The notes beneath the pieces are model-generated. The model saw only the letters and a program-made list of their open reading frames with translations, searched no databases and was not told the origin of the DNA. A stretch of DNA of 64,000 bases from Vicinamibacterales bacterium (lineage in GTDB: Bacteria; Acidobacteriota; Vicinamibacteria; Vicinamibacterales; UBA8438). The stretch is from positions 1,039,466 through 1,103,465 of the forward strand of contig CBDBMW010000012.1 of NCBI GenBank assembly GCA_965207595.1. Direction: 5' to 3'. Position 1 is the first letter of the stretch. Every line of letters starts with the position of its first letter. The translations under genes were made by a program, and so were the position numbers. Below, piece by piece: positions 11,009-49,970 of the stretch.

Positions 11009-11632
11009 ACGCCGTCGCCGCCTTCGGACGCCGGCTCGTCCGCGGCCCCGCGGGCGCGCGCATCCTCGCGCGGCTGGGCATCGATCCGCACCGCTACTGG
11101 CTGCTGTACGACCTGTTCGGGACGCTGGGCAGGCGACAGGAAGTGACGCTGCTCGGCTCCGACTACTCCCTGCGAAGCACGGCCCTGCTCTGGTTCCTCG
11201 TCTCCGGCCTCGGGAGCGTGGTGCTCGTCGTCGCCGGCCCCACTCCCGGCGGTTACCTGCTCCTCTTCCTGGGGCTCACCGCCTTCCTGCTCGCCGTGCA
11301 CCTGGTCGCCGAGGTGGCGGAGAACCTCGTGAACCCGGTGGCGGAGCTGACGCTGGCGCACCAGCCGATCAGCGCCGGCACCTGGTCGGCCGCGAAGCTC
11401 AGCCACCTGCTCACGGTGGTCGCCTACCTCGTCGGGGGCATCAACGCCGTGCCGGCGGTCTCCGGCACCCTGCTCGACCACGCGGGATGGGGCGGCATGC
11501 TCGCGTACCCCGCCGTGCACCTGCTCGCCGCGCTGGGAGTCGGCCTGGTGGTGGCGCTGCTCTGCTGCAGCCTGTTCGGCTGGCTGGTGCGATTCGTGCC
11601 CGTCGGCCGGCTCAAGGCGTTCGCCGCGCTAG

Positions 11633-13219
11633 GAGCCTGCGCCGCAGAACGCCCCGCGGCGTGAACTGGGTTGTCGGTCGAGAACCTGAGTGATCGTAAA
11701 GAGAGCGACGATGGCGATCGGTCGACGACGGGGATTCTCGGCCGAAGAGCGATCCGGACCGCGAAACGGGGTTCTGAGGGCTTCTGGGCCCGTCAGAGAC
11801 CGTGATGCGCGCCGATCGGTCGCTGTCGAGCGTCGTGTTACGCCGCCATCAGCACGTGGAGGCGCTTGACGTTCAGGGCCAGGCACACGAGGACCCACTC
11901 GGCCCGCACGTTCGCCAGCCCCCGGAAGCTGAAGCGCCGGAATCCCAGCACGTGCTTGATCCAGCCGTGCGGGGCCTCCGACAGCCACTTGCGCTCGGCG
12001 TAGGCCGCACGCCCCTCCGGCTTCGACAGCTTCTCGGCCATGCGATTCGTCGCGGGACACTTCTCCGGGTCGCGGGCCTCCGTCTGCTTCCCCTCCCGGC
12101 CCAGCGCCACATACCCGTCCACGCCCCGCTTCTCCAGGTCCGTCAGGTCCCGCTCGTTGCAGTACCCCGCATCGGCCAGCACCGTCTCCGGCTGCGCGTC
12201 GAACGTCTCCTGCACCGCGTCGAGCACCACCGGCAACTCACCCTGGTCGCTCGCGTTCGCCGTCACCTCCGTCGCCACCACCAACTGCCGCTCCGCGTCC
12301 ACCGCCACCTGCGCGTTGTAGCACTGCTGGTACCCCTCGCTGCTCGTCTTCATGATCGAGCTCTCCGGGTCCGTGAAGTTGCTCTGCGCCTTCTCGTCCG
12401 GCTCGCCGTACTCTCGCTTGTACGGCGGACCGCCCTTCGGGTTCCGGTCCTGGCCCGGCTGCCGCCCGCGCGCGTCGTCCGCCGCCCGAGCCGCCGCTTC
12501 CAGGCGCGCCTTCGCTTCCCGGATCGCCTCCAGGCGCGCCTCCCGCCGACGCAACTCCGTCGGCAGGTCATCGCCCCGAACCTCCGGGCCCAAGCGCGCG
12601 TCCTCGGCCTCGTCCACTGCGTCCGCTCGGCGCAACAGCGCCTCGACCTCGCTCTCCAGCCGCCGCTCCTCTTCCTGCATCCGGTCGTAGCTCATCGCCT
12701 TGCGCTTGCTCGCGTTCGCTCGCACCTTCGTCCCGTCGATCGACAGCTTCCCCAAGCGCACCAGACCCAACTCCCGGGCCAGATGGACCACCTCCACGAA
12801 CAGCGCCTGGACATCCGCCAGATGCCGACGCCGGAACTCGCACAGCGTCCGATGTTGCGGAAAGTTGCCCGCCGCCAGCACTCGGAACCCCACGTCTTCT
12901 TCCAGTTTCCGCGCGATCCGCCGCGACGAGAACACCCCCGTCGCGTACGCGTAGAGCAGAACCTTCACCATCATCCGCGGGTCATACGGTGCGTTGCGAC
13001 GGCCGTCCCCCTCGTACGGCGCGTAGAACACCGTCAGGTCCAGCCCGTCCACCAGATCGTTCACGTGATGCGCCAAGTGGCCCTCGGGCAGCCACTCCCG
13101 CACATCCGGCGGCAACAGCAGCGACTGCTCCGGCAAGTAGGGGCGGAATGTCGTCGGCATCGAGTCCTTCCCTCGTCCGCTCACCTAAATTGTCGCATCA
13201 GTTTCTGCGGCGCAGACTC
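11633..13219 (-). mobile_element. IS1182-family insertion sequence, 1587 bp
   Basis: 17-bp TIRs GAGCCTGCGCCGCAGAA (11633-11649) and, reverse-complemented, GAGTCTGCGCCGCAGAA (13203-13219); CTAG on both sides. Confidence 0.9.
11838..13160 (-). CDS. tnp: IS1182-family DDE transposase
   Basis: PYDPRMMVKVLLYAY, SSRRIARKLEED, SIDGTKVRANASK, NFTDPES, YNAQVAVD, VLADAGY, FRRFSFRGL; alternative GTG start at 13184. Confidence 0.93.
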   Translation of the reverse strand: MPTTFRPYLPEQSLLLPPDVREWLPEGHLAHHVNDLVDGLDLTVFYAPYEGDGRRNAPYDPRMMVKVLLYAYATGVFSSRRIARKLEEDVGFRVLAAGNFPQHRTLCEFRRRHLADVQALFVEVVHLARELGLVRLGKLSIDGTKVRANASKRKAMSYDRMQEEERRLESEVEALLRRADAVDEAEDARLGPEVRGDDLPTELRRREARLEAIREAKARLEAAARAADDARGRQPGQDRNPKGGPPYKREYGEPDEKAQSNFTDPESSIMKTSSEGYQQCYNAQVAVDAERQLVVATEVTANASDQGELPVVLDAVQETFDAQPETVLADAGYCNERDLTDLEKRGVDGYVALGREGKQTEARDPEKCPATNRMAEKLSKPEGRAAYAERKWLSEAPHGWIKHVLGFRRFSFRGLANVRAEWVLVCLALNVKRLHVLMAA

Positions 13220-13328
13220 CTAGCGCCGCCAACCCGTCGCACGCTCCGGGTCGGCCCCAGCCCCCACCGTCCCAGGAGCTTGCGCCGCGGCACGCACTCC
13301 GTTGACGTTCTGCGGCGCAAGCTCCTAG
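13220..13328 (+). mobile_element. 105-bp in-frame MITE-like insertion: 52-bp arm plus a 49-bp mini-element with IS1182-type TIRs, bounded by CTAG
   Basis: GAGCTTGCGCCGC (13276) ... TTCTGCGGCGCAAGCTC (13324); CTAG at 13220 and 13325; 35 sense codons; related to 48587-48670. Confidence 0.75.
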
Positions 13329-48322: not shown

Positions 48323-49675
48323 TCAGGCCGTCCGCGCGAGCTGCCGAGCGCGACCGGCGACCTGCATCGCGAATGCTCCCAGGGCGTCCCCATCCAGCCC
48401 GGAGGCGGCAAGCTCGCCCGCGGTTCCTTCGGCCCGCTCGATCGCGAGTGCAGCCAGCGCCGCGACCCGCCGCCGCACGAACGGCGGCGCCAGCCCGACG
48501 CTCTTCGCGAACCGATCCCAGTCCCCGGGACGCAGCTCCCGCAGCGTGGCGCGCCCGGCGACCCGCATCGCGAGGTTGGGGGCCAGGGGTCTGCGCCGTG
48601 GAACGGCGCGGACTCCTGAAGGATTGGGTTGGGCGCCGAGCGGAGCCGCAGGCGACGAACGGCGGGCGAAGTCGGGATAGGCGACGGTCGAGAGCAGGTC
48701 GTAGAGCGGAGCGAGCTCCGTGCCCCCTTCGCGGTGGAGCAGGCTGTAGTTCTTGGCGTGGGCATCGGCGTTCCCGATGAGCACCTGCACGATGGCCGCG
48801 TCGAGCAGCTTGAGCACCTCGACGGCCGGACGCGGGCACGCGCGCCGGACCAGATCGAAGCACTGGCGGAACGCCGGACCGCCGTCGGCGGCGTACTTGC
48901 GGCTGGAGGGCACCCGGAGCGCCTGGCAGAAGTCCTCCTGGTGCAGGCGGCGCACGGAACCGTCCGCCTCCCGCTGCCGGTCGTAGCGGGTGACGAGCAG
49001 GCAGTGCCCATCGGCCACGCGATACGCGTCCACCGGGGCCGCGTCCACCCCGAGGCTGGCGGCGAGGCGCATCGCGAACGCCTCGTTCTCGGTGGTTGCC
49101 GGGAACCGGGCGATGGGCGGCTTGAGGATATGCGTGGTCGGCTGCCCCGGCCCAGGCAGCGCGACCCGCCCGCCGACCAGGACGACGGGGAGCTTCGACT
49201 GCGCCCCGGCGAGCGACAGCCGCAGGCCGCGCGTGCCGGCCAGCATCGGCCGGGTACCGAGCTGCCCGAGCACGCCGGCCAGCTCCTGCTCGTCGAGCGC
49301 CGCCGCGGGCTGGCCGCCGGCCGGGGTCACGACCGGCGGCGGCTGCGGCGCGTCACCCTCCGGCCGCAGGGTCAGCGCACCGGCCACGTCGCCCCCCAAC
49401 CGCTCGAGCAGTGCGAACTCGTTGCCCGGCGACACGCCGAAGACCGCCGCGACCGCGTCGCGCTGCGCACCCTCGGGCAGCAGTCCTTCGAAGAAGGGCC
49501 GACACGCCCGGGCGCGGAACGGCTCCGCGCGCTTCGGCAACGAGAAGGAGAGCGCGGGCGAGGCGGGGTCGGCGAGCCAGACCGCGTCGTACGCGAACCG
49601 CATCGCGCCGTCGCGATCCACGCGCAGGGAGCCGACGAGCGCGTCCTCCCACCAGACCGCCAGCGCGCGCGTCAT
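48323..49675 (-). CDS. hipA: HipA-family kinase toxin with HipA-N domain and a 28-aa insertion
   Basis: SLAGAQSKL, THILKP, ENEAFAM, LLVTRYDR, HQEDFCQAL, IGNADAHAKNYSL, LAPLYD. Confidence 0.92.
   Translation of the reverse strand: MTRALAVWWEDALVGSLRVDRDGAMRFAYDAVWLADPASPALSFSLPKRAEPFRARACRPFFEGLLPEGAQRDAVAAVFGVSPGNEFALLERLGGDVAGALTLRPEGDAPQPPPVVTPAGGQPAAALDEQELAGVLGQLGTRPMLAGTRGLRLSLAGAQSKLPVVLVGGRVALPGPGQPTTHILKPPIARFPATTENEAFAMRLAASLGVDAAPVDAYRVADGHCLLVTRYDRQREADGSVRRLHQEDFCQALRVPSSRKYAADGGPAFRQCFDLVRRACPRPAVEVLKLLDAAIVQVLIGNADAHAKNYSLLHREGGTELAPLYDLLSTVAYPDFARRSSPAAPLGAQPNPSGVRAVPRRRPLAPNLAMRVAGRATLRELRPGDWDRFAKSVGLAPPFVRRRVAALAALAIERAEGTAGELAASGLDGDALGAFAMQVAGRARQLARTA
48587..48670 (-). 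mobile_element. 84-bp in-frame MITE-like insertion in hipA with IS1182-type terminal hairpin
   Basis: Gene sense: arm + TCAG + GAGTCCGCGCCG-TTCCA-CGGCGCAGACCC + CTGG; adds FARRSSPAAPLGAQPNPSGVRAVPRRRP between YPD and LAPNLAM. Confidence 0.72.
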
Positions 49676-49899
49676 GCCCGAGGGTCGCCCCCGGCGCCGG
49701 CCGGCGGTTCGATCCGCAGCGTGCAGCCGAGGGCGGCGAGCACGGCGAGGGCCTTGCCGATCTGCGCCGTCACCTTCCCGGCCTCCAGCTCCACCACGAA
49801 CCGCACGCCGACGCCCGCCGCTCCGGCAAGCTGGTCCTGCCGGAGACCCTGTGCGCGGCGCGTCTCCCGAACGACTCGTCCGATGTCGCGCGGCGTCAC
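49672..49899 (-). CDS. hipB: HipB-like XRE HTH antitoxin
   Basis: IGRVVRETRRAQGLRQDQLAGAAGVGVRFVVELEAGK; GTG start; overlaps the hipA start. Confidence 0.88.
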   Translation of the reverse strand: MTPRDIGRVVRETRRAQGLRQDQLAGAAGVGVRFVVELEAGKVTAQIGKALAVLAALGCTLRIEPPAGAGGDPRA

Positions 49900-49907
49900 G
49901 GCTTGAT

Positions 49908-49970
49908 TTCCCGATCGGGAATATAGGGCGTCCGCCGCGGCTTGGCAACCTCCGGCTTCCCGATCGGGAA
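49908..49970 (-). promoter_or_regulatory. hipBA promoter flanked by two perfect 14-bp operators
   Basis: TTCCCGATCGGGAA at 49908 and 49957; minus strand TTGCCA-17 bp-TATATT between them. Confidence 0.82.

Follow-up and report, generated by a model that had tools for sequence, protein, structure and literature searches.

What are 28 codons of apparently mobile origin doing in the gene of a toxin kinase, and how did they come to be there? The question is raised by hipA in a 64,000-nt stretch of the genome of a Vicinamibacterales bacterium (contig CBDBMW010000012.1, positions 1,039,466 to 1,103,465 of the forward strand; the whole stretch is called the window here, and coordinates given without a contig are those of the window). 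An earlier note on this DNA had proposed that hipA carries an in-frame peptide derived from a mobile element and related to an insertion sequence (IS) of the IS1182 family, either tolerated in the kinase or attenuating it. We consider it quite probable that a single unit of an IS1182-related repeat was inserted into hipA recently, and that it resides there as a passenger. The gene and the inserted unit lie as follows.

48323..49675, minus strand: hipA, encoding a HipA-family Ser/Thr kinase toxin of 450 amino acids (aa); the open reading frame (ORF) is intact, including a 28-aa insert at residues 336-363.

48586..48669, plus strand (consensus orientation): the inserted repeat unit, 84 nt, as placed against empty alleles; 48585-48668 is also possible.

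Comparison of the empty alleles with the window leaves an ambiguity of 1 nt, an A, at the insert boundary. Aligned by codons, the insert is 48587-48670 and supplies hipA, in reverse complement, with 28 codons (48670-48587); in the protein, ...LAPLYDLLSTVAYPD is followed by the insert, FARRSSPAAPLGAQPNPSGVRAVPRRRP, and then by LAPNLAM.... We aligned the product with 35 HipA homologues, 41-96% identical and drawn from Acidobacteriota, Alphaproteobacteria, Gemmatimonadota and further groups. The 28 residues are present only in the window protein, while all 35 homologues run YP[DE] directly into LS or LA, with an invariant length at this site. The alignment thus confirmed the indel, also against two species of the same genus (G001 and G003), whose HipA is 95% identical in amino acids, lacks residues 337-363 and is encoded by DNA in which the matched parts adjoin. 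Their empty site reads CCCGACT|TGGCCCCC, or GGGGGCCA|AGTCGGG on the plus strand, and the window is exactly 84 nt longer (DNA alignment with G001 and G003/L031). The claim of 28 extra codons between YPD and LAPNLAM is borne out by both comparisons.

The same difference separates closely related populations. A contig of run X10, labelled as a sponge metagenome, skips exactly 84 nt (48585-48668) between flanks that are ~98% identical to those of the window, and runs X5 and X6 hold another empty hipA allele. Each junction of the filled allele is crossed, with 0 mismatches, by independent contigs of runs X1-X4 and X12. Filled-allele contigs were found only in these runs, which represent three samples from two studies, and the empty allele was not found among the X1-X4 contigs that cover the hipA site. 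No single short-read contig covers the whole repeat in hipA; because the junction contigs are free of errors in five runs, the hipA junctions are not an assembly artefact. The insertion is real and polymorphic among close populations, and the alleles show it to be recent and strain-level.

We then asked what had been inserted. A BLAST search of the bacterium's own genome (6.68 Mb, 71% GC) returned 147 matches of at least 60 nt, or ~147 copies of a repeat family with the consensus GGAGTCTGCGCCGTAGAACGGCGCGGACTCCTGAAGGATTGGGTTGGGCGCCGAGCGGAGCCGCAGGCGACGAACGGCGGGCTA, to which six genomic copies are identical and the hipA copy is 97.6% identical. The unit consists of an 82-nt core plus a 2-bp duplication, giving 84 nt, and ends in ...GGCGGGC-TA; a longer form of ~103 nt has an additional internal hairpin. 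The repeat occurs in every one of the five genomes of the genus and, beyond it, in three further genera of the same bacterial family. Three complete or near-complete genomes of other genera (G009, G013 and G015) gave 100-466 first-look candidates and 22-29 scored repeat matches each. [quoted passage not shown] By its matches, the hipA segment is one copy of a dispersed, non-coding and structured repeat.

The relation of this repeat to the IS in the window rests on the following features.

11629..13223, minus strand: IS1182-family IS, 1595 bp, with ends CTAGGAG...CTCCTAG; it carries the terminal inverted repeat (TIR) common to the repeat.

11838-13184, minus strand: transposase ORF of this IS.

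48584..48618, plus strand: stem-loop 1 of the hipA copy, a palindrome with IS1182-TIR-like arms, GGGTCTGCGCCG and the reverse complement of GAGTCCGCGCCG.

48634..48664, plus strand: stem-loop 2 of the hipA copy, recognized by its fold and by compensatory changes in the family.

The transposase matches NCBIfam NF033551 with 368.6 bits (cut-off 270), and Pfam DUF772, DDE_Tnp_1 and DDE_Tnp_1_6. The genome holds five copies of the IS, 99.9-100% identical and each bounded by CTAG, and its TIR is 31 nt long. The arms of stem-loop 1 (48584-48599 and 48603-48618) are 16 nt long, 88% complementary and 3 nt apart. Within them, GGGTCTGCGCCG (48587-48598, plus strand) and GAGTCCGCGCCG (48604-48615, minus strand) each agree at 11 of 12 positions with GAGTCTGCGCCG, which occurs exactly at 13208-13219, in the right end of the IS, ~35.4 kb from the hipA insert; these are the 11/12 matches to the start of the TIR, 35 kb from the IS, that had first drawn attention to the locus, and we found them as stated. 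Taken alone, the match of the 12-mer is weak, with 5 occurrences per window against 2.3 expected, a number reached in 8 of 100 shuffles. Despite this, the consensus settles the link to the TIR, as its start, CTAGGAGTCTGCGCCGTAGAA, agrees at 20/21 positions with the right IS end and at 21/23 with the left one; the other hairpin arm matches at 13/14. Genome-wide, the 13-mer GGAGTCTGCGCCG occurs exactly 173 times against 1.3 expected, and 99 arm-loop-arm palindromes are present. Outside the TIR no homology between the repeat and the IS was seen (score 14 versus a shuffle mean of 15).

The derivation from a mobile element, the in-frame position and the relation to IS1182 were therefore rightly recognized in the earlier note, given a family of ~147 copies with the IS1182 TIR in its consensus. 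Its description of a mini-element 'with IS1182 ends', however, holds for the relation to the TIR and not for the ends, as both arms belong to one hairpin at one end of the unit. Alignment of the left 30 nt of the unit with the reverse complement of the right 30 nt revealed no TIR at the right end (591 of 1000 shuffles reach the score), and an 8-mer common to both ends, GAACGGCG, was not significant (score reached in 75 of 1000 shuffles).

Stem-loop 2 has left its own trace in the family. Counted over 62 different copies, pairing holds in 87% of pair cells, as against 31-39% with slid partners, and two of its pairs show 17 and 22 double compensatory changes; the exchange is between CGCCG/CGGCG and CACCA/TGGTG and is largely that of one subfamily. 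Two stem-loops are predicted for the consensus; the free energy of the element strand is -50 kcal/mol (z = -4.9), that of the strand transcribed with hipA -39.9 kcal/mol. When 48400-48850 was compared with Rfam under a permissive threshold, nothing beyond noise appeared (mir-6827, 14.9 bits; radC, 14.6 bits).

We analysed where the units insert. The commonest flanks are GCTAG or GCCAG on the left, the latter in 12 of 61 copies, and GCTAGG on the right. The copy at C9:64581-64664 has an empty counterpart, CC-TA-GG in G003 against CC-TA-[82]-TA-GG in G000, and this pair defines the insertion as an 82-nt core with duplication of TA inside CTAG. An equivalent search for the copy at C12:1631434 was uninformative, the site being occupied or rearranged in all four relatives. 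CTAG is depleted ~13-fold in the genome (1361 found versus 17707 expected from base composition), and a sizeable share of the existing CTAGs are ends of these repeats. We examined 130 left junctions. At 44 of them a co-oriented ORF with a strong coding signal ends at most 60 nt away, and in 24 of these 44 the stop is a TAG that shares its G with the first position of the element, which places at least 24 of the 130 left ends precisely on a stop; the mirror case was found at 4 of 86 right junctions. The units thus sit on stop codons and restore them, with an orientation bias of ~6:1, which suggests selection on the transcribed strand, perhaps for a hairpin in the 3′ untranslated region.

Head-to-tail arrays of 3-5 units with a period of exactly 84 occur in G000 at C12:1695800-1696132, C13:791412-791812 and C12:2469457-2469721, and related 84-nt arrays were seen in G001, G003 and G013. 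Such arrays are what would be expected if units inserted repeatedly into the CTAG/CYAG that terminates a resident one.

Residence inside genes is a different matter. Only two of the ~147 copies, in hipA and in a gene for a DUF1592-type protein, have a coding signal on both sides, and both are in frame; in-frame residence is, then, not the habit of the family. These copies were called by a flank-wise test, two earlier screens based on GC content at third codon positions having been too loose or too strict, and one of them having missed hipA.

In hipA the target was GCCA|AG, near-cognate to CTAG, and its occupation gives GCCAG, the commonest left junction motif of the family. We propose the following course of events. 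The family normally lands in the rare CTAG and, by the 82 + 2 model, duplicates TA; where, as is often the case, that CTAG includes the stop (TAG) of the gene upstream, the first G of the element restores it. One unit recently inserted at the near-cognate site in hipA, most likely moved in trans, we infer, by the IS1182 transposase. The hipA frame stayed open because 82 + 2 is divisible by three and the reverse-complement frame is free of stops. HipA thereby gained a segment of 28 aa rich in Pro, Arg, Ala and Ser, nine residues after the Mg-binding Asp of LYD; this segment is predicted to lie at the surface as a disordered loop, with the HipA fold otherwise native. Most likely the copy is a young passenger, neutral to damaging, and loss of hipA would cost the cell nothing while hipB is present.

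The open frame itself needs no special explanation. The consensus is free of stops in four of its six frames, among them the one read in hipA, and none of the three private changes of the hipA copy removes a stop. Since the length is a multiple of three and 4/6 frames are open, an open frame is the chance expectation and not evidence of selection.

Several observations weigh against this reading. At hipA the unit did not hit a CTAG, and the two copies of the putative 2-bp duplication differ, the left one being CA and the right one GA, with 1 bp (A) as the only perfect repeat; under the 82 + 2 model the duplication would be CA...CA, with one change needed in the right copy, and otherwise a single A would have been duplicated. 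Across the family, target-site duplication leaves a modest signal: a match is seen in 18 of 61 copies where shuffles yield 11.2 on average, and 18 is reached by 19 of 2000 shuffles. As no TIR is detectable at the right end, the unit is no textbook MITE. Furthermore, G009, G013 and G015 hold many copies of the repeat but no IS1182 transposase. Their units are fossils or owe their movement to another factor. It is common for MITEs to survive the elements from which they derive, and the lack of a transposase in these three genomes is for this reason not decisive.

Further observations concern the protein. AlphaFold2, run with an alignment of 36 sequences, gave a predicted template modelling score (pTM) of 0.86 and no secondary structure in the insert. 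The predicted local distance difference test (pLDDT) falls below 50 in four segments, the last of which, 336-363, coincides exactly with the insert between adjoining 10-residue blocks of at least 90, although a low pLDDT is expected in the insert by construction, the alignment being empty there. The model predicts a disordered loop on an intact HipA fold. Against a tolerated loop, the length of the YPD|LSP site never varies in the 35 homologues, and the insert could for this reason well damage the kinase; a 'tolerated loop' is not established. The site lies nine residues past the Mg-binding Asp, and damage to kinase activity is, from the invariance of its length, quite possible.

The insert was added to a toxin-antitoxin module, the remaining parts of which are these.

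49672..49899, minus strand: hipB, a helix-turn-helix (HTH) antitoxin gene (Pfam HTH_3), with a likely GTG start at 49899.

49908-49921 and 49957-49970, upstream of hipB: two perfect 14-bp palindromes, TTCCCGATCGGGAA.

The hipA product has the Pfam domains Couple_hipA PF13657 (2e-21) and HipA_C PF07804 (1e-48), and its nearest solved structures in PDB are those of E. coli HipA (E 9e-37, ~1e-36). In the alignment with homologues, all invariant kinase residues are kept: the SLAGAQSK P-loop, GNADAHAKN and LYD, with D304/N309 and D326. The hipB gene is located upstream, its stop overlapping the hipA start as ATGA, and a promoter-like site, TTGCCA-17-TATATT, lies between the two palindromes, which are presumably HipB operators; all these elements are intact. 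By domains, motifs and HTH neighbour, hipA is assignable as the kinase toxin of a hipBA module. The view that the kinase motifs and the operators had been left intact is borne out by these results, with the role of the palindromes presumed.

The module resembles that of E. coli (HipA, PDB 3DNT/3FBR) in the N-terminal coupling domain followed by the HipA_C kinase, in the conserved P-loop, catalytic Asp/Asn and Mg-binding Asp, in the upstream HTH gene hipB with its stop/start overlap, and in a promoter flanked by palindromic, presumably operator, sequences. It differs in being only ~30% identical in HipA and in the 28-aa repeat-derived loop, at the equivalent of P338/V339. In a phmmer search of PDB, the C-terminal part of HipA beyond the insertion site could not be aligned to E. 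coli HipA, also when the natural empty allele was used; as the alignment ends at the insertion site, the structural context in E. coli HipA is not readable from sequence.

At the level of the mRNA, the insert is predicted to put a strong hairpin into the hipA transcript, and a terminator scan showed that no intrinsic terminator is created by it. A sponge metatranscriptome (run X23) contains hipBA of a ~94%-identical relative, with the insertion site uncovered, and is uninformative on expression of the inserted allele; over window positions 48585-48698 its repeat-family contigs are plentiful (summed word depth ~774), with DNA carry-over possible.

The second intragenic copy offers a comparison.

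C10:268735-268816 of G000: in-frame repeat copy, 73% identical to the consensus, in a ~960-codon ORF (962 aa stop to stop) for a DUF1592/cytochrome-type protein.

This copy has the same orientation and frame as the one in hipA, and the two peptides are alike only where the DNA consensus dictates it. The copy recurs, unchanged in length, in the orthologues of G001 and G003, whose ORFs are intact, while more distant paralogues are without it. It is, as these comparisons indicate, an old and tolerated linker, kept in three species.

It is possible, but in our view unlikely, that the loop in hipA has been retained as an adaptation that tunes the kinase down or alters its regulation, making it less toxic. 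The intact ORF, catalytic motifs, hipB, promoter and operators would agree with this, as would the long keeping of an in-frame copy in the DUF1592-type protein and the proximity of the insert to the Mg-binding Asp, where it could affect catalysis. However, the insertion is very young, being absent from strains with ~98% identical flanks, so its intactness is uninformative on selection, and the open frame equals the chance expectation. The confinement of filled alleles to the runs of three samples from two studies gives no sign of spread or recurrence. We saw no evidence that the insert is an adapted feature. A broader version of the idea, which we regard as a long shot, is that the 82 + 2 design would keep the frame at every intragenic landing, stop-free in two-thirds of phases, and that the family would supply disordered loops of ~28 aa that proteins can keep, as the DUF1592-type protein has in three species; the hipA copy would then be a natural, selectable 'detuned' allele of a persistence kinase and not a dead gene.

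Entry into hipA could also have occurred by a route other than transposition, namely template switching or microhomology-mediated copying of one period of a tandem array, given that GGGGGCCA resembles the unit end GGCGGGCGA. We think this decidedly improbable. Arrays of period 84 do exist, one of them (C12:1695800-1696132) shares the GGGG start and GCGA end of the hipA copy, and the non-CTAG target with its imperfect duplication would be in keeping with such an event. Yet the hipA copy shares 97-98% with the dispersed consensus and only 93% with that array, its second junction is without homology, and its GCCAG left flank makes the hipA junction look ordinary for the family.

It is hardly credible that the repeat is instead an element of the repetitive extragenic palindrome (REP) type, or a doublet of such palindromes (REPIN), moved by a REP-associated tyrosine transposase (RAYT; Y1, IS200-like). 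The units are hairpin-rich, mostly extragenic and present in high copy number, with GTAG/GTGG in the loop and no conventional TIR pair at the two ends, as would be expected of REPINs; however, the hairpin arms are those of the IS1182 TIR and the flanks share the CTAG of the IS. A RAYT-driven REPIN was ruled out, as a search for Y1_Tnp (PF01797) gave no match in the 98.7%-complete genome and was positive in six control genomes. That the segment is ancestral and was lost elsewhere, or is an artefact of assembly, is a bare possibility with next to no chance of being true, for which one could cite the lack of a short-read contig spanning the whole repeat, but against which stand the 35 homologues from many phyla without the segment, its 98% identity to a ~147-copy repeat and both junctions free of errors in five runs.

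The insertion of a transposon-related unit remains, in our judgement, the probable origin of the hipA segment, and we compared the unit with known systems. It is like prokaryotic MITEs derived from IS5/IS1182-type IS in being short (84 nt), non-coding, dispersed and of high copy number, in carrying the TIR of a resident autonomous IS, in sharing the CTAG flanks of that IS and in its presence/absence polymorphism between close strains. Unlike them, it has its two TIR copies abutting as a single hairpin at one end, whereas the other end, ...GCGACGAACGGCGGGC-TA, is conserved and has no detectable TIR, and the family persists in genomes without the transposase. Its architecture, read from the consensus, is thus that of a 'TIR hairpin plus structured tail' and not of a textbook MITE.

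The Rickettsia palindromic elements (RPEs) are likewise palindromic mobile repeats that insert in frame, leave the ORF open and add a peptide predicted to form a surface loop. Of the 44 RPE copies that three of the ten families contribute in R. conorii, nearly half are located within ORFs (PMC10969869); RPEs (Ogata et al. 2000, 2002) and intragenic copies of ERIC, BOX and Coxiella QMITE1 are reviewed in the same work (PMC10969869). In contrast, only two of the ~147 copies here are in genes, the habit is intergenic and directed to stop-codon CTAGs, and no conserved peptide has evidently been selected. With REP, bacterial interspersed mosaic elements (BIMEs) and REPINs the units share GC-rich extragenic hairpins, often just 3′ of genes, an orientation bias and occasional tandem clusters, and they differ in the lack of a RAYT gene, in the IS1182 TIR that forms the arms and in insertion into CTAG with duplication of TA.

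In-frame insertions of palindromic repeats and MITEs, and IS-derived repeats, are well documented, and the hipA case overturns nothing. What it offers is a clean, datable instance in which a mobile repeat entered the gene of a toxin-antitoxin kinase and left the frame unbroken. Its main value lies in the natural pair of filled and empty alleles in sponge-associated populations, which allows direct comparison of HipA with and without a 28-aa loop near the catalytic centre, and hence of how well such a loop is tolerated. The family, in turn, is a tidy case of a small transposon in a 71% GC genome with a 13-fold depleted target, with homing to CTAG and TAG stops, restoration of the stop and self-nesting.

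Copies of the IS itself show further associations. Directly adjoining the right end of the IS in the window is a sister mini-element of 105 nt (13224-13328), made up of a TIR hairpin and a tail ending in GCGACGGGTTGGCGGCG-CTAG, and a second IS copy, at C10:76141-77841, bears the same appendage. The copy at C10:432911-434505 of G000 is flanked, at a distance of a few bases from its ends, by a direct repeat of ~40 bp (cgtgtcgccggggcgcgggtcccggccttcgttgagcgat), which may be a long target duplication or may reflect insertion of the IS into a pre-existing repeat. Two of the five IS copies (C10:4159-5834 and C10:371521-373217) lie next to the CTAG that ends the tail of a unit of 84 or 103 nt; it seems, therefore, that the IS uses the CTAG ends of the units themselves as targets.

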